A stretch of 64,000 nt of DNA from a virus: positions 11,146-75,145 of the IMG/VR virus record IMGVR_UViG_3300021407_000013; one strand, written 5' to 3'. Position numbers and translations under genes: made by a program. Below the pieces are notes generated by a model that was not told the DNA's origin, did not search any database, and saw nothing but the letters and a program-made list of their open reading frames with translations. Positions 19,744-56,806 of this stretch are shown here, in pieces (the first letter of the stretch is position 1; every line of letters begins with the position of its first letter).

Positions 19744-20238
19744 ATGCAAAACGACAAGGTTAAGACTGCGGACGCTATCGCGCAAGTTAGCGCGGAAAAC
19801 GCGGAATTGCGCGCTAGCGTTATTGCGCTCGTTAGTGCAATGCCTGCCGCTATCGCGGACGCCGTTAAGGCGGCAATCCCTGCCCCGACAACGCGCGCGC
19901 CTCGCACGGCTCGCGTTGCGGTGCAAATGTCCCCTGCGGACGCGGACGCCGCTATGTGCGGTTTCGTTAAGAAAGGGCCGCGTCGCGATTTCTTTCTTGC
20001 GTTGCGCGGTCTCGCGGACGGCGTATATCCTTTGTCCGATTTCGCGGGCGTTTCGCTCGCGGACGCACAAGTTGTGTATCGTCGCCTTAGCGGCAATCGG
20101 ACGGGCGGGCGCGTTACGGAAAGCTTTTTCGACCGATTAGGCTTTTCGCTCGCAATCGACAACGAAACGCGCGGCAAGGCGGACGTTATCGTTACGCGCA
20201 AGGCGGACGAAAAGGCGGCTGACGAGGTCGTCGCCTAA
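19744..20238 (+). CDS. Ala-rich hypothetical protein with anomalous GC-rich composition
   Basis: Has its own promoter, AAGG RBS and terminator; almost no TGR/YCA trinucleotides. Confidence 0.7.
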   Translation: MQNDKVKTADAIAQVSAENAELRASVIALVSAMPAAIADAVKAAIPAPTTRAPRTARVAVQMSPADADAAMCGFVKKGPRRDFFLALRGLADGVYPLSDFAGVSLADAQVVYRRLSGNRTGGRVTESFFDRLGFSLAIDNETRGKADVIVTRKADEKAADEVVA

Positions 20239-23532: not shown

Positions 23533-24169
23533 TCCAATACATGACATAGATCCAGAACCTACTGTCATGTGGGAAGAGGACTATGAACGCCTCAAGAAAC
23601 GACAGAAAATGGACGCTGCAATTGAGCGCTCCAATAAGGAGAAAGCTGACGCTATTGCTCGTGAATTATATAAAGAGCAATTGAAGATCAAAGATAAGAT
23701 TGAATATACAGAAGAGTTGGCGACAGAGATTTGTGAGAGGATCAGTGCTGGTGAGCTATTGATCAACATATGTCGTGATTCACATATGCCAACCGTGCGC
23801 CGCTGTTCAGCATGGCTCAAATCTGAAGCTGATTTCCAAGCACTCTATAATATGGCTATTGCAGATAGATTGACTATATTTGAAGAGGAAGTGATCTCAA
23901 TTGCTGATGATGCAGCACGTGATATGAAAGAAATACAGAAATCTGGGAAAACGATTAGAGTTCAAGATGCTGAGGTCATTGCGCGAGCGAAGCTCAGAGT
24001 TGAGGTGCGCTTCAGGCATTTGAAAGCTGGGCGACCTGGTAAATGGGGTGATAGCACCACTCTCATCACTAAATCAGAAGATGAAAATATTGCTGAGATG
24101 CCATTGTCTGAGCTGGAAAAGAAGATTGCTGAACTTGAACACAAGGATCGGGTGGTCAAGGCAGTGTGA
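23525..24169 (+). CDS. Terminase small subunit-like protein (Sf6 gp1-type HTH)
   Basis: YTEELA.EICERI..GE.L..IC....MP......WL....F...Y..A...IADD pattern. Confidence 0.7.
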   Translation: MTNPIHDIDPEPTVMWEEDYERLKKRQKMDAAIERSNKEKADAIARELYKEQLKIKDKIEYTEELATEICERISAGELLINICRDSHMPTVRRCSAWLKSEADFQALYNMAIADRLTIFEEEVISIADDAARDMKEIQKSGKTIRVQDAEVIARAKLRVEVRFRHLKAGRPGKWGDSTTLITKSEDENIAEMPLSELEKKIAELEHKDRVVKAV

Positions 24170-24170
24170 T

Positions 24171-24191
24171 GGGGGCGCCACAAGCGCCCCC
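24171..24191. terminator. Hairpin between convergent genes
   Basis: GGGGGCGC-CACAA-GCGCCCCC. Confidence 0.6.
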
Positions 24192-24196
24192 TGTTA

Positions 24197-24436
24197 TTAT
24201 AGTGATTTTGCCTTTTCAACAAAATCTGATAGTAATTTTTTGCCAGATATATCTTCTTTGATATAATTCTCCTTTAGCTCTTGGAGAATATCAGATGCCC
24301 ATTTGAGATGTCTCTCTGCATTATTCAATGCAGCTACATCTAATGGTTCTGATTTTGAAAATCTAAGAGCATTTCTCAGATTTTCCCTTAGTTCAGTAGT
24401 ATAATATTGAGTATCACGCACTGTTTTGGTTGCCAT
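24197..24436 (-). CDS. Hypothetical protein
   Basis: GGAG RBS. Confidence 0.55.
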   Translation of the reverse strand: MATKTVRDTQYYTTELRENLRNALRFSKSEPLDVAALNNAERHLKWASDILQELKENYIKEDISGKKLLSDFVEKAKSL

Positions 24437-24490
24437 ATTATTCTCCGTTCATTTGGCAAAATTGCCTATCAAATGAATTGAGTATCATGG

Positions 24491-24511
24491 TGTTACACTT
24501 GTACACTTTTT
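24491..24511. repeat. Left copy of the 21-bp inverted repeat flanking the DUF3631 gene
   Basis: TGTTACACTTGTACACTTTTT. Confidence 0.85.
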
Positions 24512-24523
24512 CGGTCGATTTTC

Positions 24524-25525
24524 TTATGCATATCTCTCCCACATCTCAGCAAAGTCTTCTTTAAAATACCATCTTGCTAATTTTCCTTCGTGTCTTTGAA
24601 CTCTATTCTCGATCTCAAAATCTCTGAGTATTCGAGCAAGTTTGCCTGTTGACAATTTATAGTCTGACCAATTTACATCGCTAAAATCTGAATTTATCAA
24701 AAACTCTACTAATTGATTATTGGTAATTGCGTCTTTCTTGCTATTGGTGAATATCTCTTGAACATCAGATAGCAACGACTCTCTGACATCTGGAATAACT
24801 CTTTCTTTATAGAAATCAGCCATTGCCTCATATGCAGTCTTCGCACGATCTACGGCATGGCCTATCGCAATGAGTGGGCGCCACTTGTCTGCGTAGCGCC
24901 CTATAATTTGTGGAGGCATTAATGGATTTGGATTGAGATTTACACCTTCTGCCCATCGCGCAACCTCTGCGTGATAAAAAGCCTCTCTTGGATTAAATAT
25001 CTCCATTTGTTTATTTGAGCGATGCATTTTAACCATTATGGATCTACTCATAAGCGATACTGGTAAATGGCCTATACTTGCAAGAGCGAGTGGGCCATAT
25101 ACAGGAGTTAATATGACTTCTTTACCTATTTTCCTGGGTACACTTCCTCCAATTTCGTGTCCTGCATTTAGAATGGCTTTCATACTTCTTACTATGGACA
25201 TATTATCTACTTCATCAATTAGCAATGTATGACTATTAGCTAGAGCAAATGCAGTAGCTGGAGTTGGATCTATTACTTTCTCTGGGCGCCACACAATTGA
25301 GTTTAAAATATTGAGTACAGAACTTTTACCGCAGTTTGGTAATGGGCTGAAAATTAGCAGTCTAGGTGATTTATCATATCTTCTATGTATGTGGGTATGT
25401 AGCGCCCAGAGACCTAGACCTACAATATGATGTGGTTTTGCGTCTATACATCTGGCAAAAGCACCGCATACTTGGTCAAGAATGTTAGTATCAGCGTGCA
25501 ATTTGGTTGATGATAACGTGGGCAT
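24524..25525 (-). CDS. DUF3631-containing P-loop replication protein
   Basis: PRL.I.SP..NCGKS, LLIDEVD, ILNAGH, SRSI, D.WRPL.AI motifs. Confidence 0.75.
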   Translation of the reverse strand: MPTLSSTKLHADTNILDQVCGAFARCIDAKPHHIVGLGLWALHTHIHRRYDKSPRLLIFSPLPNCGKSSVLNILNSIVWRPEKVIDPTPATAFALANSHTLLIDEVDNMSIVRSMKAILNAGHEIGGSVPRKIGKEVILTPVYGPLALASIGHLPVSLMSRSIMVKMHRSNKQMEIFNPREAFYHAEVARWAEGVNLNPNPLMPPQIIGRYADKWRPLIAIGHAVDRAKTAYEAMADFYKERVIPDVRESLLSDVQEIFTNSKKDAITNNQLVEFLINSDFSDVNWSDYKLSTGKLARILRDFEIENRVQRHEGKLARWYFKEDFAEMWERYA

Positions 25526-25543
25526 TAGCCTTCTCCTTGTCGA

Positions 25544-25564
25544 AAAAAGTGTACAAGTGTAACA
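25544..25564. repeat. Right copy of the 21-bp inverted repeat
   Basis: AAAAAGTGTACAAGTGTAACA, the reverse complement of 24491-24511. Confidence 0.85.
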
Positions 25565-25580
25565 TTCATCTTTCTTCTCC

Positions 25581-25814
25581 TCAATTCATTCGTTTCTGCA
25601 TGTATAATGAAGCTTCTTCCTTGGTTAAATCTTGCGCTACTATTCCAACCAAAGGTTTATTTTCTTCAGCTATATCTTTTGCAAGAACTTCAATTGCTTT
25701 TTCTCCCATATGCATATTGAAATGCAAGCCTTCTTCAATTTCTCCTTCTCTCATACCTGTAAATACAGGTGTACCATTATATCGTAGTACCTCGTAAATA
25801 AACCATTTGGACAT
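25581..25814 (-). CDS. Hypothetical protein
   Basis: AGGAG RBS. Confidence 0.55.
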   Translation of the reverse strand: MSKWFIYEVLRYNGTPVFTGMREGEIEEGLHFNMHMGEKAIEVLAKDIAEENKPLVGIVAQDLTKEEASLYMQKRMN

Positions 25815-26031
25815 TTTTCTCTCCTAGTTGATCTCGTCAGGTAGTGTATTACACTACTATTATCAGCTCATAATTATAGCGTAAGCTGATAATTTCGATC
25901 TCAGGAAACGACGCAACCATTTTGGTAGTTACTTAACCGCATGGCATTCTTCTAATACCAGGTTTGTGTCGCTTTTCGTCGAAATGACTGCGCCCGAGTT
26001 TTCTCTCGGGTGAAATTCCTGCTTACAACCT

Positions 26032-26060
26032 ATAGTAGCACATTTTCGTTGCCAAAGCAA
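26032..26060 (-). promoter_or_regulatory. Sigma70-like promoter
   Basis: TTGCTT-N14-TGC-TACTAT. Confidence 0.65.
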
Positions 26061-26134
26061 GTCTTTTTTATTATTGAATGAGATGATACGTTGAAACCCT
26101 TGCAGCACTGGGTGGCGCTGCAAGGGGATTATGG

Positions 26135-26428
26135 TTAGTTGGTCATACCCGGCTGTTCGCGCCGTTCCATATTGTAGTATGCCTTGAGAGAGCTATATGG
26201 AGACCTGTTAAGTTCCTTGATCAAATAACGATCCGAGGCGTCTTGACTTTCTAGCATCATGCGCTCGCCTCTGGCAGATTGCTCTTCTCTGATAAGCTCG
26301 ATCTTTCTATGAAAACGTGATGCAATGCGCTCCCGAGCTTGAGCAATCTCGTCTATTCTATAGTTGATGTCGTTGACTTTATCGTAATTTTCTGTCTTGA
26401 CCATATCTAACTCCTTCTGTATGGGCAC
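26135..26428 (-). CDS. Hypothetical protein
   Basis: Downstream of promoter 26444-26472; AAGGAG RBS before MVKTE. Confidence 0.55.
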   Translation of the reverse strand: MPIQKELDMVKTENYDKVNDINYRIDEIAQARERIASRFHRKIELIREEQSARGERMMLESQDASDRYLIKELNRSPYSSLKAYYNMERREQPGMTN

Positions 26429-26443
26429 TCGCCCTTACCTGCT

Positions 26444-26472
26444 ACCCTAGCACTTTTTCCGAAAGAAAGCAA
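26444..26472 (-). promoter_or_regulatory. Sigma70-like promoter
   Basis: TTGCTT-N14-TGC-TAGGGT. Confidence 0.55.
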
Positions 26473-26623
26473 GCATTTTCTTTTTATCAAAATCACCATT
26501 CCTCATTCATTGGCTGAATAATGGCTGATGAAATCATTTCATTCAACATTTGAAGCTTCATGGGTCAGTGATAATCATGGTATTTTCCCCTTTTGTTCCC
26601 TTAAAGTTCTGCTTTTGTTCCCC

Positions 26624-26652
26624 TTGCTTTCTTTTCCGGGACGTGCTACGGT
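26624..26652 (+). promoter_or_regulatory. Sigma70-like promoter for the ribozyme-containing early region
   Basis: TTGCTT-N14-TGC-TACGGT; the spacer shares TCTTTTCCGG with promoter 41485-41513. Confidence 0.6.
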
Positions 26653-26907
26653 TTTCTTTCCGCGGAGGAAACCGCGGCGCAGCCTGAGACTTGGCGAAAA
26701 GCGAAACAAACCCGGCAAGATGACTCGCCGAGCGGTTAAGTAAGTGGTTAGGCAGTCTCTCCCCAAAGGGCAATAAGCACCAGGGAGAAAAACCGGCCAT
26801 TTGCGTCGTTTCGGCGGACGGAAATATCCGCCTGAGATAACAACACAGAGCACAGCGCCCTGAGAAGGGTGCTGTGTTCGCTGGAGTTATTTCTAGCAAG
26901 GAAAAGT

Positions 26908-27291
26908 ATGATGTCTAGTAAAAAACGCGCATTGATAAGGCATATGAAGGCAAATCCGTTAGATAGTGTGAGATCTGCACATAAAAATATGGACATTACT
27001 CCGAAGCGGATGACATATCGAATTGATCCGAATAAAGAATTGAAGGAACGGGACGAAAAACCGCTTGAAGAAGTAAAGATTAATCAGAATTACGATATTT
27101 GGAGAGTAGACGTAAAAATATTAAAAAGATCTGGTAAGAAAGTTATAAAATATGTGAAGAATAATCCGCCTGGAAAGCGGTATTATCCTCTATCTGAGTC
27201 TAAAATAGCGAAAGGTGATCAGATAGAAGGCAAAACGGTGACAGGAACTACGTTTGCTGATTACAACAACAAGCGTAAAAGTGAGGAGTAA
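26908..27291 (+). CDS. Lys-rich basic hypothetical protein
   Basis: AAGGA RBS. Confidence 0.5.
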   Translation: MMSSKKRALIRHMKANPLDSVRSAHKNMDITPKRMTYRIDPNKELKERDEKPLEEVKINQNYDIWRVDVKILKRSGKKVIKYVKNNPPGKRYYPLSESKIAKGDQIEGKTVTGTTFADYNNKRKSEE

Positions 27292-27459
27292 GGGTTATGT
27301 CAGAGCGTAAATTGAAAGATAGGAGCATTTTCAGGAAACAGCCAAAAATGCCGCCACTACAGCGATTGTTTGTCAGCGCAGCAACTGGACATGCCAATCG
27401 CAGCAAAAAACTAAAAGTCTCAGTTGCACCTATGCAATTCACCAAACAGGAGAAGAAAA

Positions 27460-27792
27460 ATGACGAAGATGTTTAACCAGGAAGTACATGACAACCTCAT
27501 TGCTCTCGGATACACGTATCTATTCAGATACAAGAATAGATACGATGAGTATAACCATCCTATTAACGACGACTGGATTAGCATAGACAAAGTTGGGCGT
27601 GTAGATTTCCCAGATATATGCTCCTATATTGATACTCCAAAGCATAAAGCTAAAATCCAGAGGGATATGACACCTGCTATGGCATTAAGAATAGCAGTTA
27701 ATATGAAGAAAATATTTGAACAAAAGAATTTGCCATACCAATTAGATATAGATGGTCATAAAATAAAATTAGGAATAATGACTCAACATTAG
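27460..27792 (+). CDS. Hypothetical protein
   Basis: AGGAG RBS; its TAG overlaps hammerhead 1. Confidence 0.65.
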   Translation: MTKMFNQEVHDNLIALGYTYLFRYKNRYDEYNHPINDDWISIDKVGRVDFPDICSYIDTPKHKAKIQRDMTPAMALRIAVNMKKIFEQKNLPYQLDIDGHKIKLGIMTQH

Positions 27793-27855
27793 ACCGAAAC
27801 TGGTGCGCCATATAGGGCGTTCCAGTCCTAGCGTGAGGCGCTAGCTGACGAGGTC
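27792..27855 (+). ncRNA. Type II hammerhead ribozyme HH1
   Basis: GACC-GAAA-CTGG..CCAG-TC^-CTAGCG(TGAGG)CGCTAG-CTGACGA-GGTC; predicted cleavage after C27827. Confidence 0.93.
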
Positions 27856-27874
27856 AGTAACAGGAGAAAGTACA

Positions 27875-28096
27875 ATGGCACGGGTAATTGTTCAGGTTAA
27901 GCTTGCAGACATCAATGGAAACGAATACACGGAAGGTGAGTTGCTTCGTGAATTTACAGTAGTAACCAAAGGTCGCGGTGCAATAAATATACAGTCGATG
28001 GCATCAATTATACAAGGTACAATCGAAGCTTATGAGGACAAATTTAGGGTTGAAAATACCAAAACATATTCAGTAACAAATCGCCGAACTGGTTAA
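27875..28096 (+). CDS. Hypothetical protein, the only gene between HH1 and HH2
   Basis: AGGAG RBS just after the ribozyme. Confidence 0.7.
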   Translation: MARVIVQVKLADINGNEYTEGELLREFTVVTKGRGAINIQSMASIIQGTIEAYEDKFRVENTKTYSVTNRRTG

Positions 28097-28099
28097 CCA

Positions 28100-28158
28100 G
28101 GCCGAAACTGGCAGGTGCGATCTGCCAGTCCTAGCGTAAATCGCTAGCTGACGAGGTC
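28100..28158 (+). ncRNA. Type II hammerhead ribozyme HH2
   Basis: GGCC-GAAA-CTGGCAG..CTGCCAG-TC^-CTAGCG(TAAAT)CGCTAG-CTGACGA-GGTC; cleavage after C28130. Confidence 0.93.
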
Positions 28159-28177
28159 AGTAACCAGGAGAACTAAA

Positions 28178-28465
28178 ATGGCACAGATAGAAGATGAGCA
28201 ATTACTCGCGATGTATTCGCGGGATTTTACCACTGATAAGTCCTATGGACAGCTCAGTGTTGTCTCCATACTCACAGAGAGTGTGGAGCAACTAACAGAT
28301 CTCATACCAGAGATCGCTACGCTCCCAGTTGAGCGTAAGGCACAGATTGAAGAGCAGATTGTGCTCTTCACTCTTTCGCTCTACCACGAAGGTAGATTGC
28401 GCGGTGAAGCTGCGGAGCGTTCCACACAAGAGGCTGATTCTGATCGCCTCTCAAATTACGAGTGA
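28178..28465 (+). CDS. Hypothetical protein
   Basis: AGGAG RBS. Confidence 0.65.
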   Translation: MAQIEDEQLLAMYSRDFTTDKSYGQLSVVSILTESVEQLTDLIPEIATLPVERKAQIEEQIVLFTLSLYHEGRLRGEAAERSTQEADSDRLSNYE

Positions 28466-28473
28466 GGTAGCAA

Positions 28474-28713
28474 ATGACAACCATTACAATCGAACTAGAG
28501 ATAGTTCAGGCCCAAGAACTTGCCGCAGTAGCACGTGGCAAAGCTAAGGGCATCGACTGGGTTCTGGAGAATAAACCTCCAATTCCCAAGAAGGCGTTAG
28601 AGCTTGATGAGCGAGCTAAGGTGCTCATACAAGCAGCCACTACCATTGAGACAGCGCTCCATGCAAGGGCGCTCTCCAATGTCGTTCCGTTGGGAGGTAA
28701 AAATGCCGGCTGA
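28474..28713 (+). CDS. Hypothetical protein
   Basis: GAGGTAGCA leader. Confidence 0.6.
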   Translation: MTTITIELEIVQAQELAAVARGKAKGIDWVLENKPPIPKKALELDERAKVLIQAATTIETALHARALSNVVPLGGKNAG

Positions 28714-28999
28714 TCCCTGGATCGTATGCCCAGTCTGCGATGGCGAAGGCAAGACTGTCAATCCGAACATTGATTCGAACGGATTGACCAGAGAAGACTT
28801 CGATGAAGACCCAGACTTCAGAGAAGATTATATGAGCGGCGTATATGATATTACGTGCGCTGCTTGCTCTGGGAAGCGTGTTGTGAAAGCAGCACGTATC
28901 GAGGAGCTTCAACAAAATGCTGAAGATCGACGCCTCGCCGCTCGTGAGAACGGTGATTATGAATCATACTGCGGTGCAGGCGACTGGAGGTATGGGTAA
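28703..28999 (+). CDS. DnaJ-type zinc-finger protein
   Basis: CPVCDGEG...CAACSG; GGAGG RBS. Confidence 0.65.
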   Translation: MPADPWIVCPVCDGEGKTVNPNIDSNGLTREDFDEDPDFREDYMSGVYDITCAACSGKRVVKAARIEELQQNAEDRRLAARENGDYESYCGAGDWRYG

Positions 29000-29238
29000 T
29001 GGACAAGCAAATAGAAAATCGCGCCAAGTACCCATACATCTGCGCTTGGGGTATGCGACTTGGTTCTTTTCAATATTATATCGACGGAGAAATTAAAAGA
29101 GCCATCGAGGACGGCGCTCCTGAGCGTGCCATTTACAAGAGCGGTTCAGGAGAGTGGCGCACCATTGATGATTGTGCGAACCCCAATGCTAAAGAAGAAT
29201 GTGAGGCGTGGGTAGCTAAAAAATACCCTGGCAAATAG
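28999..29238 (+). CDS. Hypothetical protein
   Basis: TAATG coupling; its TAG overlaps HH3. Confidence 0.65.
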   Translation: MDKQIENRAKYPYICAWGMRLGSFQYYIDGEIKRAIEDGAPERAIYKSGSGEWRTIDDCANPNAKEECEAWVAKKYPGK

Positions 29239-29294
29239 ATCGAAACTGGCAGTGCGATTGCCAGTCGCGTTGTAATGCAACGCCTGACGAGGTC
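29238..29294 (+). ncRNA. Type II hammerhead ribozyme HH3
   Basis: GATC-GAAA-CTGGCA..TGCCAG-TC^-GCGTTG(TAATG)CAACGC-CTGACGA-GGTC; cleavage after C29266. Confidence 0.93.
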
Positions 29295-29319
29295 AGTTAC
29301 CCAAACCAGGACTACGAAA

Positions 29320-29532
29320 ATGGCTATCCAAAATACAACATTATATGAGGATAACTATGGCTTCTACTGTGTAGAGGAGCCAGATGAAGAAGCCTTCTAC
29401 GTCCACATCGTAAAGCAGAGTGTGGCGAAGAAGTGCTCGCGTTGCCAAAAGAAGGTGCGCTTGTTGAAGCATATCAAAATGTGCGCTTCGTGTTCTAATG
29501 CCATCGAGTTTGGCGCATCGGAGTCAATATAA
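29320..29532 (+). CDS. Zinc-ribbon protein
   Basis: CSRC...CASC; start placed after the ribozyme. Confidence 0.6.
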   Translation: MAIQNTTLYEDNYGFYCVEEPDEEAFYVHIVKQSVAKKCSRCQKKVRLLKHIKMCASCSNAIEFGASESI

Positions 29533-29816
29533 TGTCAAACGAAATTTTAGAAGCTGTGCCAGACACAGAAGCCAAGCCGCGTATGGTTAAGATACAGGTG
29601 TGGTGTTGGAAGACCTATACCAAAAAATACAAAGATGAAGTTGTTAGCTTCATGTCAGAAGAATACAGCGCTGATGCTTACAAGTCGGAAGGTGACATTA
29701 TAAATCATCATCTTACAAACGGCCACTACCAATTGCATCGTATTGATTGCTTCTACACTTTAATACATGAAGGTGGTTCTACTGATATACTGCAATGGAG
29801 GTTCGAGCAGTCATGA
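29532..29816 (+). CDS. Hypothetical protein
   Basis: TAATG coupling. Confidence 0.6.
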   Translation: MSNEILEAVPDTEAKPRMVKIQVWCWKTYTKKYKDEVVSFMSEEYSADAYKSEGDIINHHLTNGHYQLHRIDCFYTLIHEGGSTDILQWRFEQS

Positions 29817-30115
29817 AAGAAGGTAATCACATCATTACCATTGAAGAGCTATTTTTATTATCTGTCATGCTTCGACAGTTCCAAGAAAAAGTAGAAGCAA
29901 TTGACAAAGACAAAACAATTTCATCTTTCGTTGCCTTGTTTCCATTGGAGCAAGACAAGTCAGAAGATCCACATGAAATTGCTAAAGTTTCTCTCCAGAA
30001 TTTATTGGAGGGATTCGAGAAAACCGAGCGTCAAATTCGCGATACAAACTACCAGTTGTTCAAAGTTAGAACATTTCTGGAAGCCCTAAAGGATGGCGCC
30101 TCAGATTGGAAATAG
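29813..30115 (+). CDS. Hypothetical coiled-coil protein
   Basis: ATGA coupling; its TAG overlaps HH4. Confidence 0.6.
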   Translation: MKEGNHIITIEELFLLSVMLRQFQEKVEAIDKDKTISSFVALFPLEQDKSEDPHEIAKVSLQNLLEGFEKTERQIRDTNYQLFKVRTFLEALKDGASDWK

Positions 30116-30181
30116 ATCGAAACTATGGGGCGCACCAAAAGCGTTCCATAGTCGCGGCGTTACTCGCCGCCTGACGAGATC
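30115..30181 (+). ncRNA. Type II hammerhead ribozyme HH4
   Basis: GATC-GAAA-CTATGG..CCATAG-TC^-GCGGCG(TTACT)CGCCGC-CTGACGA-GATC; cleavage after C30153. Confidence 0.93.
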
Positions 30182-30200
30182 AGAAAAAGGAGTAGGTAGC

Positions 30201-30410
30201 ATGACGAAAGTAGATCCAAAATCTGCCTTTGAAGGGGACACCATTACTCCCATCGAAAAGCCCAAAACAAGGCAACAGAAAATTGTTGAGTATAGAGCAG
30301 CTCACGAAGCTGAGTATCGTAAGGCGTGCCACGAAGAGCAATGCACCTGCACACCAACGCGGGCGCAAATGCTCATTATGGAGAATTACAACCATCCACC
30401 GATCGACTAA
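30201..30410 (+). CDS. Hypothetical protein
   Basis: AAGGAG RBS just after HH4. Confidence 0.6.
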   Translation: MTKVDPKSAFEGDTITPIEKPKTRQQKIVEYRAAHEAEYRKACHEEQCTCTPTRAQMLIMENYNHPPID

Positions 30411-30427
30411 GAAAATTTATTGAACTT

Positions 30428-30452
30428 AGTGGGGCTTCGGCCCCATTCTTTT
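30428..30452 (+). terminator. Rho-independent terminator
   Basis: AGTGGGGC-TTCG-GCCCCATT followed by CTTTT. Confidence 0.75.
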
Positions 30453-30486
30453 AGGTCATTTAAGGCCACTAACCAGGAGAGTAAAA

Positions 30487-30783
30487 ATGGAAATCCACGA
30501 CAATCTTCACTATACTGATTCTACATACGGAAACCCAGAACGTAAATGGCAGATGCGTTCTGATCACATTCTCAAGCTGTTCGATCTACCACCGAATGGT
30601 CCAATTCCTCCTGATCATTTCGATTCTAGGGTTATTGGCAATGTGCAGGTTATGATCGTTCCGCGCGGTTATTTCAAAATCAAGCGTCGTGTGGTCGCGT
30701 ATTGCCCCAAGTGCAAGAAAATTGTGTGCGCTGGTCATTTAATGCAGCACATGAAGGTCCACAAGAAGGACCAGGAGATTTAA
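30487..30783 (+). CDS. C2H2-like zinc-finger protein
   Basis: CPKC...L.QHM.VH. Confidence 0.6.
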   Translation: MEIHDNLHYTDSTYGNPERKWQMRSDHILKLFDLPPNGPIPPDHFDSRVIGNVQVMIVPRGYFKIKRRVVAYCPKCKKIVCAGHLMQHMKVHKKDQEI

Positions 30784-30928
30784 GATGACTCAATTAGATT
30801 TTCATTCCGCCTGTATTTTGGTCCTCGGTCTTGGAGGCTTCGCCAATACCGTTGCCAATTATCTGCTATCAAAACGAGTCCGCTATTTGGAGCATAAACG
30901 CAAGGTTATGTTCTGGGAAAGGGAGTAA

Positions 30929-31156
30929 ATGACCGAACAGGAAGAAGCATTTGATCTATGGAAATCCAGAGTAGACGTTTATCTGGAGCAGATGGTTAAA
31001 AAGCTAAGTGGAGATTTTCGTTACGATTTTTTGAAAGACTTCAACGATAAGGTTCCACCTAGCGTAACAGCAACCAGAGTTGTTAAAAGTCAATACAAAG
31101 GAGCTAGAAATGGCAGAGTACGAAGTCAAATCAAACGGGAAGAAGCTCCTCGATGA
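30929..31156 (+). CDS. Hypothetical protein
   Basis: GGGAG RBS. Confidence 0.55.
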   Translation: MTEQEEAFDLWKSRVDVYLEQMVKKLSGDFRYDFLKDFNDKVPPSVTATRVVKSQYKGARNGRVRSQIKREEAPR

Positions 31157-31340
31157 GTATCGAGGAGACCGCGTTTTTGGAGATTGTTATGTCATTCTTA
31201 AGGATGGAAAGGAATCGTATGAAGTCGTCCTTTCTACCATAGTTGACAGTTGCAATTGCCCAGGATTTACACATCACGGGCATTGTAAGCATATTGATAT
31301 GACTTACGAGAAAGCATTTGTTTCTGAAGTAGATCAATAG
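31110..31340 (+). CDS. SWIM zinc-finger protein
   Basis: CNCPGF....HCKHI; its TAG overlaps HH5. Confidence 0.7.
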   Translation: MAEYEVKSNGKKLLDEYRGDRVFGDCYVILKDGKESYEVVLSTIVDSCNCPGFTHHGHCKHIDMTYEKAFVSEVDQ

Positions 31341-31404
31341 ACCGAAACTTGGTGCGCCACAAAGGCGTTCCAAGTCGTGCTGTTAGGCAGCACCTGACGA
31401 GGTC
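31340..31404 (+). ncRNA. Type II hammerhead ribozyme HH5
   Basis: GACC-GAAA-CTTGG..CCAAG-TC^-GTGCTG(TTAGG)CAGCAC-CTGACGA-GGTC; cleavage after C31376. Confidence 0.93.
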
Positions 31405-31428
31405 AGAAATGCCAAGGAGGTAGCACGT

Positions 31429-31575
31429 ATGGGTGACCCAGAAGAGCATAAAGACGAAGAGTTGAGCGTAAAGGCTGATACTCCTGCTCCAAAGGAGGAA
31501 GGTCCGTCTGAACCAAAAGAACCAGAAGCGGATCCAATCCGTAAAGGTGAAGGCGATCAGCCTGAAGTAGCGTAA
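31429..31575 (+). CDS. 48-aa acidic Pro/Glu-rich peptide
   Basis: Read by hand: MGDPEEHKDEELSVKADTPAPKEEG...EVA; AAGGAGG RBS; bounded by HH5 and a terminator. Confidence 0.6.
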   Translation: MGDPEEHKDEELSVKADTPAPKEEGPSEPKEPEADPIRKGEGDQPEVA

Positions 31576-31580
31576 GCATA

Positions 31581-31617
31581 GGCCGCTCCCATTTGGGAGG
31601 ATGGGAGCGGTTTCTTT
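31581..31617 (+). terminator. Rho-independent terminator
   Basis: CCGCTCCCAT..ATGGGAGCGG followed by TTTCTTT. Confidence 0.75.
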
Positions 31618-31632
31618 AACCAGGAGAACAAA

Positions 31633-31821
31633 ATGCCTAAAAGTGAAGCGTTAAAATATATATCAGTACCTCGTAACGAATATCAAATTCTTACAAGCGC
31701 CATGCGTATCTATGTGGCTCTTCTCACAGAGGAATACGGCAATCAGCCTTCTTCTGAGAGGAAAACCGCTATGGAAGATGCGATCTCTTTATTGACAAGG
31801 ATGAAAAATGGCAAACTTTAA
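31633..31821 (+). CDS. Hypothetical protein
   Basis: AGGAG RBS. Confidence 0.55.
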   Translation: MPKSEALKYISVPRNEYQILTSAMRIYVALLTEEYGNQPSSERKTAMEDAISLLTRMKNGKL

Positions 31822-32008
31822 AGACCATCCTCCGTTAAAGCCGTGCCATTGCGGCTCTGGTCTGGAGCGCCACGCAGAAAAAGATGCTCGTGGTATCTTT
31901 CTTTGCTATGTCTGTGAGAAATGCAGAGATGAGAAGCTCTCTCATTATCGACCAGACGTTCTTACTGACCCAAACTATTGGCACGACGAGCCAATCGACG
32001 AGCCATAA
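31808..32008 (+). CDS. Zinc-binding protein (SEC-C-like CxCGSG)
   Basis: PCHCGSG...C..C. Confidence 0.55.
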   Translation: MANFKDHPPLKPCHCGSGLERHAEKDARGIFLCYVCEKCRDEKLSHYRPDVLTDPNYWHDEPIDEP

Positions 32009-32217
32009 AATGCAAACAATCCTCTTGTTTCTCATTCTTATGGCACTTTCGCCTAGATTGGCGCGAGCGTTCGGCAAGTTCATCGTCATGCTTGTGTTGT
32101 TTTTCATCGGCATACTGGTTTTAGCAGCATGGCCGCATGTAGGGCATCCGTAATGCATGGCTTCATTGTCTTTTTGCTCGTGATCATTATTCTAATGCTC
32201 ATGTGCAAATGAGTTAA

Positions 32218-32387
32218 GGCGCGGTAACAGCGCCAGCCGCCAAAGACTAGCCATCCACAGCCCCCCGTTCGGATGGCATTTTTATCAATTTAGCGAACCC
32301 TCTGGTCATTTAGAATCGCCCCCCGGTTCCTATGGGCCAGAGGTAGACTTGCCGCTCCACTCCCCACAAGAGTGGAGCGGCCCTTTT
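32218..32387 (+). ncRNA. Candidate sRNA with four hairpins and C-rich loops
   Basis: Non-coding gap; two loops share GCCCCCCG(G)TTC; ends in a 12-bp hairpin followed by TTTT. Confidence 0.4.
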
Positions 32388-32422
32388 AGGCAATTTAGCC
32401 ACAAACTAGGATTTAAAATGTC

Positions 32423-33436
32423 ATGTACCTTATGGATCACATCGTAGAAACAGTTCATCAAGCGAAGAAACGAAAGTTGATGCAACATCCTGTTGTCAGA
32501 ATCTTTCCAGAATTGGAAGAGAAACTGAAAGGATGCCCGCGTTTCTTGTTTGACGAGAACGCAATCAGAACGGCTGTGGAACTTACTCTGGGGCGCCCCA
32601 AGGTGCTTAGGGAAGCCATGGCACATCTTACCATTCCATACACTAAGTTGTGGGTAGAATGGCCAGAAAGCGGCAGAGAAAAATTGAGACAGACGTTCTC
32701 AATCGACTCTTACGAGTATCCTGAGCGCCCATTACCAACTCGTTTGGGCTTTCTGCTAGAGACAGATGAGTCTGGTAGAAAAGGTCAGGTTACTTGGGTT
32801 TGGAGTAATCATTTTATCAAGAAAGGTGAGCCTCCGAATGTTGGTCCAATATCTGCGTTCTTTGATTTGGATTTTAACTATAGCAAGTTGGTAAGCCCGA
32901 GCTTTGTGAAAAGTTTTTTGGATGCTAACCTAGCGCATATCTGGAAGGACAACAAAATCCAACTGGAGGCGCTCCTTAGTATTTGGGATACATCTTATCA
33001 TCAACCGTCCGAATGGGGACAGAAGTTTCTGAAAATTCCTGTTCCAGGATCGCCGTATGGTAACGATGATCAACGTGTAGCCAATTTCTATGCGGACGTT
33101 TATGGCGAATACATTATGGTTTGGTCTTGCTTGTTACTGTTGACATCTTCCAAGAAGATTGTAAATTTGGAAGAAGTTGATATGTCTCCGCTCAATAAAA
33201 TACGCAGGCGGATGGATAAGCCTCAAAAACTAGATCATACCATTGTTAGCATGTATATAAATGAAGAAACTCGTATGCACCAACAAGGTATGCCTCTTGG
33301 GTATACCAGAAAGAGTCCACGTATCCATATGGTTGGGTCATATCTTAACAGACGTGGCGATAAACATTGGATAGTTCAGCCTTTCTGGCGAGGCGAAGGC
33401 GAAGTTATCAGCAGACACGTAAAAGTGAAAGGATAG
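32423..33436 (+). CDS. Conserved phage hypothetical protein
   Basis: 337 aa; C-terminal SPRIH.V..Y.....W...PFWRG. Confidence 0.7.
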   Translation: MYLMDHIVETVHQAKKRKLMQHPVVRIFPELEEKLKGCPRFLFDENAIRTAVELTLGRPKVLREAMAHLTIPYTKLWVEWPESGREKLRQTFSIDSYEYPERPLPTRLGFLLETDESGRKGQVTWVWSNHFIKKGEPPNVGPISAFFDLDFNYSKLVSPSFVKSFLDANLAHIWKDNKIQLEALLSIWDTSYHQPSEWGQKFLKIPVPGSPYGNDDQRVANFYADVYGEYIMVWSCLLLLTSSKKIVNLEEVDMSPLNKIRRRMDKPQKLDHTIVSMYINEETRMHQQGMPLGYTRKSPRIHMVGSYLNRRGDKHWIVQPFWRGEGEVISRHVKVKG

Positions 33437-33439
33437 CAC

Positions 33440-33655
33440 ATGCCATCACATTACTATTCACTTCTCGGAATAGTAAGAGCTACTCCAATAAAGCACGGAT
33501 GGAACGTCGAAGTATCCTACAAGGATGAAGATGTCCATTCCGGTCCTTACAAGACTACCACTAAATGGCATCCTGTAAAGGAAGTCACTACTGTTGACGA
33601 GTTAAATGATCTTGTTCTAAAACTATGCAGTGAGGAGACTAAACGTGAAACGTAG
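33440..33655 (+). CDS. Hypothetical protein
   Basis: ORF in operon. Confidence 0.5.
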   Translation: MPSHYYSLLGIVRATPIKHGWNVEVSYKDEDVHSGPYKTTTKWHPVKEVTTVDELNDLVLKLCSEETKRET

Positions 33656-34019
33656 CCTAATCATAATGGCGCTGCTCATATCAGGTAGCGCCCAAGCAGA
33701 GATGTGTGACTTTGAGCACAAATGTTACCCAGATCAGCCTTATTACGATCTGCAAGGAAAAAGAATTCCACCACCAGCACCGCAATATCCACAGCCTAAG
33801 CCATTACCAACACCATCTGCACAAGTTACCATTAATTCAAACATTTGCAAGTTGGCGAAGATCAGAGTTTCCCCTGAGGCGCCACAAACGATAATTGAAA
33901 TCTGTACCATGTCAGATGACGAAGAAAGAATGTATCGTCAGCGGCAGAGAGATCATCAAATCTCAATTCCACAGATGTATATGAAGAACTATCTCGTACC
34001 ACCGGAAGGGAACTACTAA
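33645..34019 (+). CDS. Secreted Pro-rich protein
   Basis: Signal peptide ending AQA. Confidence 0.55.
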   Translation: MKRSLIIMALLISGSAQAEMCDFEHKCYPDQPYYDLQGKRIPPPAPQYPQPKPLPTPSAQVTINSNICKLAKIRVSPEAPQTIIEICTMSDDEERMYRQRQRDHQISIPQMYMKNYLVPPEGNY

Positions 34020-41484: not shown

Positions 41485-41513
41485 AGCATAGCATAAACCG
41501 GAAAAGAAAGCAA
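41485..41513 (-). promoter_or_regulatory. Sigma70-like promoter
   Basis: TTGCTT-N14-TGC-TATGCT. Confidence 0.65.
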
Positions 41514-42576: not shown

Positions 42577-42605
42577 TTGCTTTCGTGCCGAAAATGTGCT
42601 ATGCT
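42577..42605 (+). promoter_or_regulatory. Sigma70-like promoter of the replication operon
   Basis: TTGCTT-N14-TGC-TATGCT. Confidence 0.65.
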
Positions 42606-56777: not shown

Positions 56778-56806
56778 TTGCTTTTGTTGCAATGCGGTGC
56801 TAAGAT
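56778..56806 (+). promoter_or_regulatory. Sigma70-like promoter
   Basis: TTGCTT-N14-TGC-TAAGAT. Confidence 0.6.

Follow-up and report, generated by a model that had tools for sequence, protein, structure and literature searches.

Six type II hammerhead ribozymes at the gene junctions of a tailed phage

The DNA considered here, referred to throughout as the window, is a stretch of 64,000 nucleotides (nt) corresponding to bases 11146-75145 of a 75,145-base IMG/VR virus record (IMGVR_UViG_3300021407_000013), whose completeness rating is 94%. Genes for a portal protein, large terminase, primase, ATP-dependent ligase, DnaE-type polymerase, separate exonuclease subunit and helicase are encoded, and the portal, terminase, primase, polymerase and helicase together identify the source as an uncultured tailed phage. 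Within 5.6 kilobases (kb) of this genome, at the junctions of clustered small genes, lie six copies of the hammerhead ribozyme, designated HH1 to HH6, with positions and predicted cut sites as follows.

HH1, 27792-27855, plus strand: type II hammerhead; predicted cut after C27827; 87.5 bits; next ATG at 27875; the upstream TAG overlaps stem II
HH2, 28100-28158, plus strand: predicted cut after C28130; 73.7 bits; next ATG at 28178; stem I and the 3' half are common to HH1
HH3, 29238-29294, plus strand: predicted cut after C29266; 72.8 bits; next ATG at 29320; stem II contains a G-U pair
HH4, 30115-30181, plus strand: predicted cut after C30153; 81.9 bits; next ATG at 30201
HH5, 31340-31404, plus strand: predicted cut after C31376; 89.1 bits; next ATG at 31429
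HH6, 25900-25830, minus strand: H17 is A; predicted cut after A25858 (minus strand); 70.4 bits; next ATG at 25814

A first-pass annotation of the window had reported an array of five hammerheads on the plus strand. All five are present where it placed them, each with a complete type II core and three helices, and their parts follow the order it described: a stem II strand, GAAA, the stem III hairpin, U-H17, the stem I hairpin, CUGANGA and the second stem II strand. The count itself was one short, as HH6, found by reading the opposite strand, had been overlooked. The cut sites proposed for HH1 to HH5 are consistent with the numbering of the core.

Every copy carries the catalytic core (C3 U4 G5 A6 N7 G8 A9, G12 A13 A14, the A15.1-U16.1 pair, and C or A at H17), and the pairs adjoining it (10.1-11.1, 1.1-2.1 and 15.1-16.1) are intact in all six. 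The topology is likewise uniform, with stem II open and stems I and III closed by loops, as expected for type II. A loose sequence pattern returned five matches where 0.29 were expected, a number reached in none of 100 shuffles, and a covariance model built from the six window copies with 13 base pairs (model R1) found exactly six matches in the whole 75-kb genome, at 70-89 bits and E values of 1e-16 to 1e-21. The minimum-energy fold is the three-way junction in four of the six copies (HH1, HH2, HH4 and HH5; z -3.0 to -5.4), while that of the minus-strand HH6 has its stem II register shifted. The six elements are thus genuine, conserved type II hammerheads with predicted cleavage. One further match to CUGANGA followed by GAAA, at 20219, proved to be a gene end followed by a terminator and was rejected.

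Conservation and covariation among related viruses

Twelve related viral loci were gathered by means of a 337-amino-acid (aa) protein (32423-33436) encoded just downstream of the array. Model R1 gave 51 good matches in these loci, at 47-87 bits, and 11 of the 12 carry between three and seven copies, which without exception share the strand of the genes and precede the 337-aa protein; the most distant locus (50% identity) yielded no hammerhead with this model. The claim of the first-pass annotation that the core is invariant while the stems covary holds across the family. Core bases do not differ among the 39 distinct copies, the exception being N7, the sole core position left free by the hammerhead rule, which varies among C, U and G; H17 is C in 37 copies and A in two. 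In 34 distinct aligned rows, 99.8% of cells in the 13 modelled pairs can pair, nine of the 13 pairs show changes in both partners, and compensatory cells number 90, a total reached in none of 500 shuffles, with slid controls pairing at only 22-42%.

Scores in the related loci fall from 47 to 19 bits with nothing between, and no decayed copies were seen. Taken together, the unchanged core, the compensatory stems and the lack of decayed copies point to selection on an active ribozyme rather than on a hairpin or a DNA repeat. The 19-bit match, found in L019, L022, L024 and L025, has a broken core and was rejected as a hammerhead. The copy at L019:5764-5841 (also present in L022, L024 and L025) has one extra T between core A9 and G10.1, which a close homologue in L021 lacks, and may be a weakened or dead ribozyme. 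The apices of stem III fall into a few recurring types, among them a 7-nt GUGCGAU loop and a CACAA-type loop on a GC-rich upper stem (for example at window 28112-28122 and 29250-29258, and in copies of L012-L021); this exceeds what a passive stem would need, and the apex may be a protein site or make a tertiary contact.

Junction anatomy and proposed transcript processing

The elements are fitted closely between genes. Four of the plus-strand copies have the G of the upstream TAG in common with stem II, whereas the fifth lies 3 nt away from it, and across the family the distance from stop codon to stem II ranges from -1 to +4 nt. On the 3' side, 17-24 nt containing a Shine-Dalgarno sequence separate stem II from the next ATG in the window, as do 15-24 nt in most relatives. 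This layout suits the earlier proposal that each downstream product begins with a 5'-OH stem I hairpin followed by a nearby ribosome-binding site.

These features suggest the following course of events. Each hammerhead would fold during transcription and cut after H17; the upstream RNA would run about 35 nt past its own stop codon and finish at the stem III hairpin, bearing a 2',3'-cyclic phosphate, while the downstream RNA would open with a 5'-OH on the stem I hairpin, ahead of the ribosome-binding site and ATG. With the 4-base-pair (bp) stem II as the sole tether between them, the products should separate, making the cut effectively irreversible, and the likely outcome would be gene- or block-length mRNAs whose stability and translation are independent of their neighbours. 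From the sequence, fold, covariation, core conservation and junction position documented here, we infer both cleavage and an effect on expression. Transcript cutting at gene junctions is plausible, and we assign a probability of roughly 70% to the reading that six canonical type II hammerheads, placed at the gene junctions of small-gene clusters, cut the transcript into gene- or block-length mRNAs.

Several observations weigh against this reading. Terminator-like hairpins occur inside the array (listed below), and some junctions may therefore already be transcript ends. The minimum-energy fold of HH3 prefers a small alternative 3' hairpin that replaces stem II. Also missing is the pseudoknot to which the published type II consensus owes its fast cleavage, and Rfam searches at E <= 10 on stretches of 5.5 kb, 396 nt and 77 nt gave no hammerhead match. 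The flanking genes have no assigned function, so calling the array "early" is a guess from layout.

The cut envisaged here recalls two familiar devices, namely RiboJ, an engineered type III hammerhead insulator, and the RNase III sites of phage T7 early genes, which are cut by a host protein nuclease. In both, cutting just upstream of the ribosome-binding site frees the gene from upstream RNA and leaves a hairpin at the new end. The resemblance to RiboJ and to the T7 sites is an analogy of action, not family membership.

A much closer precedent exists, and the first-pass annotation was wrong to regard the array as an undescribed system, as clustered phage hammerheads and a processing role for them were published in 2011 (PMC3088659). 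Perreault et al. describe multiple hammerheads that often flank single genes or short blocks in prophages, the genes themselves varying, and propose that long phage transcripts are thereby converted to gene-length mRNAs; arrays of three ribozymes cleave in vitro, and one of them also in E. coli (PMC3088659). The processing idea recurs in a 2019 review, which regards the purpose as unresolved (PMC6765202), and in Desulfovibrio vulgaris type II hammerheads close to phage-like genes cleave in vivo according to cyPhyRNA-seq (PMC8782182). The present array resembles those of Perreault et al. in having several copies within a few kb, small phage genes of non-conserved identity and type II topology. 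It differs in number, since the tested published arrays had three copies whereas this phage has six and its relatives up to seven, and in structure, since the window copies are without the pseudoknot between loop I and the 3' tail of the 2011 type II consensus and go unseen by the Rfam model derived from it. The D. vulgaris case shares the type II fold and phage-like context but consists of three dispersed single copies, the likeness being one of type and context.

The array is a clean, fully canonical example of a layout that has been known for 15 years, and it plausibly works by the known mechanism. Beyond this, the window contributes a blind spot of Rfam, the overlap of stop codon and stem II, a hybrid ribozyme at a cassette deletion, a copy that appears to be embedded in a leader, and terminator-like hairpins that argue against a single operon.

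A type II subgroup beyond the reach of the Rfam model

The first-pass annotation had proposed the Rfam hammerhead models as a check, and none reports any copy: at gathering score no hammerhead family was found in the whole window, and RF02276 (Hammerhead_II) run directly on the genome gave no match, placing the copies below its 37-bit gathering threshold. Twelve other viral loci carrying this subtype were likewise unmatched by this model at E <= 10. Weak Rfam matches to NmsRb, SPRY4-IT1_2, speF and freshwater-2 were far under their thresholds and were dismissed.

The window-type copies and RF02276 have the catalytic core and the circular permutation in common (stem II open, stems I and III closed), but the former have a longer stem III (23-43 nt) and no pseudoknot between loop I and the tail. 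Judged from the copies themselves, these two differences are the likely cause of the miss. Because the core and helices that define a hammerhead are present, we read the silence of Rfam as a limit of the model; the window-type copies are a type II subgroup beyond its reach, and the silence is no argument against their identity.

In the type II consensus of Perreault et al., most but not all members have a pseudoknot of at least 4 pairs between loop I and the stretch immediately 3' of stem II (PMC3088659). A tertiary contact of this kind had been proposed for the window, and covariation lends it no support: in the 39 family copies the longest run complementary between loop I and tail averages 2.28 nt, compared with 2.44 for permuted partners, and reaches 4 nt in only two. 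The loop I form U-N-A-N-N that accompanied the proposal holds within the window, whereas in the family only the first U is invariant (39/39) and position 3 is A in 28 of 39. Similarly, a 3' tail beginning AG is common (A in 36/39, G in 31/39) without being universal. The conserved tail sequence also precedes ribozyme-free genes (30470-30479 and 31618-31627), indicating that it is mostly the usual ribosome-binding and translation-start context of the phage and not a ribozyme feature. An A flanks stem II on either side, at the 5' side in 38 of 39 copies as parsed (the exception being a mis-parse) and at the 3' side in 36 of 39; the first U of loop I and an A flanking stem II would fit a U-A tertiary contact.

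The pseudoknot-less subtype is not confined to the relatives of this phage. An exact-pattern scan of IMG/VR found it in at least 119 stretches from many samples, and model R1 identified 99 copies in 74 of these loci, in arrays of up to six. These 74 further viral loci (88 distinct sequences) pair in 99.4% of cells, with 320 compensatory cells. Arrays of this subtype occur in unrelated viral contigs, with six copies in L078, four each in L066 and L068, and three each in L105, L048 and L062, none of them reported by Rfam at gathering thresholds. Routine annotation thus undercounts such ribozymes, as a widespread viral type II subgroup, with as many as seven copies in one array, escapes the Rfam model.

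Hammerheads at cassette boundaries

Among the relatives L012 is the closest, with 94-97% identity to the window over most of the array region, and it differs from the window at three places. At the first, the window carries an additional unit of a 73-aa gene and a hammerhead, where L012 carries one hybrid hammerhead that agrees with HH1 in the 5' flank and stem III and with HH2 in the tail and downstream gene; the crossover lies in the nearly identical 3' half that HH1 and HH2 share. At the second, L012 has an extra 1.6-kb unit (a hammerhead and a 320-aa gene) where the window has only HH5. At the third (29530-29822), one gene is replaced with no hammerhead at the ends. When L019 is compared with L021, a hammerhead marks the start of homology and another breakpoint, the end of one indel, also falls at a hammerhead. 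In these sequence comparisons, therefore, hammerheads also mark joints at which gene cassettes are gained and lost between close phages, with few clean events to count. The hybrid junction and the hammerhead-bounded cassettes connect these elements with the turnover of genes in addition to RNA processing; a hybrid ribozyme at a cassette deletion does not figure in the parts of the Perreault et al. 2011 account used here.

This pattern raises the question of whether the main selected role lies in the DNA, with the elements of about 60 nt serving as homology patches for the insertion, deletion and swapping of cassettes, and RNA cleavage being secondary or acting only to decouple the cassettes. 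The first two differences from L012 and the L019/L021 breakpoints are what such a role would leave behind, four of the six inner breakpoints between the window and L012 lie within or at most 26 nt from a hammerhead, and stem II pairs 10.3/11.3 and 10.4/11.4 are almost invariant while stem I varies freely. However, the compensatory changes in stems I and III and the untouched catalytic core favour selection on RNA over a DNA repeat, one of the three differences from L012 lies away from any hammerhead, the clean cassette events are few, and alignments of diverged pairs tend to end at conserved islands, which exaggerates the link to breakpoints. We regard a primarily DNA-level role as unlikely, though it is the least unlikely of the alternatives.

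A combined role is a speculative and rather doubtful extension, in which the hammerheads would double as universal linkers in a recombination-and-expression module for fast turnover of accessory genes. If this were true, the linker unit would consist of ribozyme, ribosome-binding site, one or more genes and stop codon, with a near-constant 3' half and stem II, and recombination inside the ribozyme could add, remove or exchange such units between phages, each unit still being independently expressed through the cut at that joint.

Possible regulated cleavage or RNA rejoining

The hammerheads might instead be regulated or deliberately slow switches rather than constitutive cutters, set either by a ribosome terminating at the stop codon at stem II or by an alternative 5-bp hairpin in which the CUGAN box pairs with NUCAG (the end of stem II and the AG tail), adjoining stem I. 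In keeping with this, nearly every copy has a stop codon overlapping or abutting stem II, the stabilising pseudoknot is missing, and the CUGAN/NUCAG hairpin, which is the structure adopted in the minimum-energy fold of HH3, pairs in 94.7% of phage-family cells, with N7 matching position 10.2 in 30 of 34 rows (C-G in 20, U-A in 10, other in four). In the broader viral set, though, the hairpin pairs in 91.8% of cells, barely above the 90.4% of shuffled sequences; tight packing of the stop codon may be mere genome economy; and the hairpin may just as well arise solely after cleavage, to cap the 5' end. A switch is improbable in our assessment, and the hairpin itself could be either a post-cleavage 5' structure or an off-state.

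Least probable by far is that the excised gene-length RNAs are rejoined, the fragment ends re-forming a hammerhead across a shared stem II and ligating into circular or spliced RNAs: the near-uniform stem II does make the halves of neighbouring ribozymes mostly compatible, and the idea was raised by Perreault et al. 2011, but those authors sought spliced and circular products and found none (PMC3088659), a stem II of only 4 bp would clamp the ends weakly, combining HH4 with HH5 gives an A-C mismatch, and a search of the phage genome for the RtcB and RNA ligase families detected neither.

Transcription units

The following terminator-like and promoter-like elements were found in the window.

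30428-30447, plus strand: terminator-like GC hairpin and U tract, between HH4 and HH5
31583-31610, plus strand: terminator-like hairpin and U tract, after the gene following HH5
32351-32381: terminator-like hairpin and U tract, beyond HH5
26624-26649, plus strand: promoter-like motif, candidate start of the unit with HH1-4
26035-26060, minus strand: promoter-like motif, candidate promoter upstream of HH6
26447-26472, minus strand: promoter-like motif, in the array region
41488-41513, minus strand: promoter-like motif
42577-42602, plus strand: promoter-like motif
56778-56803, plus strand: promoter-like motif

The first-pass annotation had assigned the whole array to one early polycistronic mRNA. 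Such a transcript is probably not uninterrupted, given the terminator-like hairpins in and after the array and the location of HH6 in a divergent minus-strand unit. The 30428-30447 hairpin may split the array into separate transcription units or may stabilise a 3' end. At two places (30428-30462 and 32351-32397) a terminator-like hairpin is followed by TTTTAGG, 2 nt and ATTTA ahead of the next gene, and these may represent a second type of junction, terminator plus promoter, in place of a ribozyme.

The promoter-like motif (TTGCTT, 13 nt, then a GTGCTAC-like sequence) occurs six times in the window where 1.6 occurrences were expected, and two of 100 shuffles reach six. The six motifs lie mostly at divergent intergenic regions and are candidate phage or host promoters. 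If they are promoters, HH1-4 would be on a transcript starting near 26660, and HH6 would lie about 125 nt into the 5' leader of a transcript from 26035-26060, where its cut would strip the leader from the mRNA of a 77-aa gene. HH6 probably does occupy a 5' leader, and a leader-embedded copy would offer a simple natural test case for cleavage insulating a gene from its 5' context. Downstream of the matching promoter-like motifs lies an inverted partial duplication with leader-like character (25892-25978, minus strand, and 26695-26825, plus strand); the minus copy runs directly into HH6, and the plus copy lacks a ribozyme and contains a small inserted hairpin.

Neighbouring genes and relation to cultured phages

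The DnaE-like polymerase of the phage is less than 35% identical to that of any cultured phage, and neither window 24000-34000 by megablast nor the 337-aa protein by tblastn matched cultured phages. For at least 20 small proteins flanking the hammerheads, searches of PHROGs and Pfam returned nothing usable, only sub-threshold hints of zinc ribbons. Small proteins within the array (28703-28999 and 29320-29532) carry paired CxxC motifs, and their Pfam matches, to the DnaJ CXXCXGXG domain and a zinc ribbon, are both sub-threshold.

Apart from such hints, the sole named family among the flanking proteins is DUF3631 (Pfam), matched by a 333-aa protein. The DUF3631 gene segment at window 24996-25426 is inverted relative to L012, L013 and L014, while L019 and L021 share the orientation of the window, and the minus-strand unit containing HH6 may have originated by inversion.

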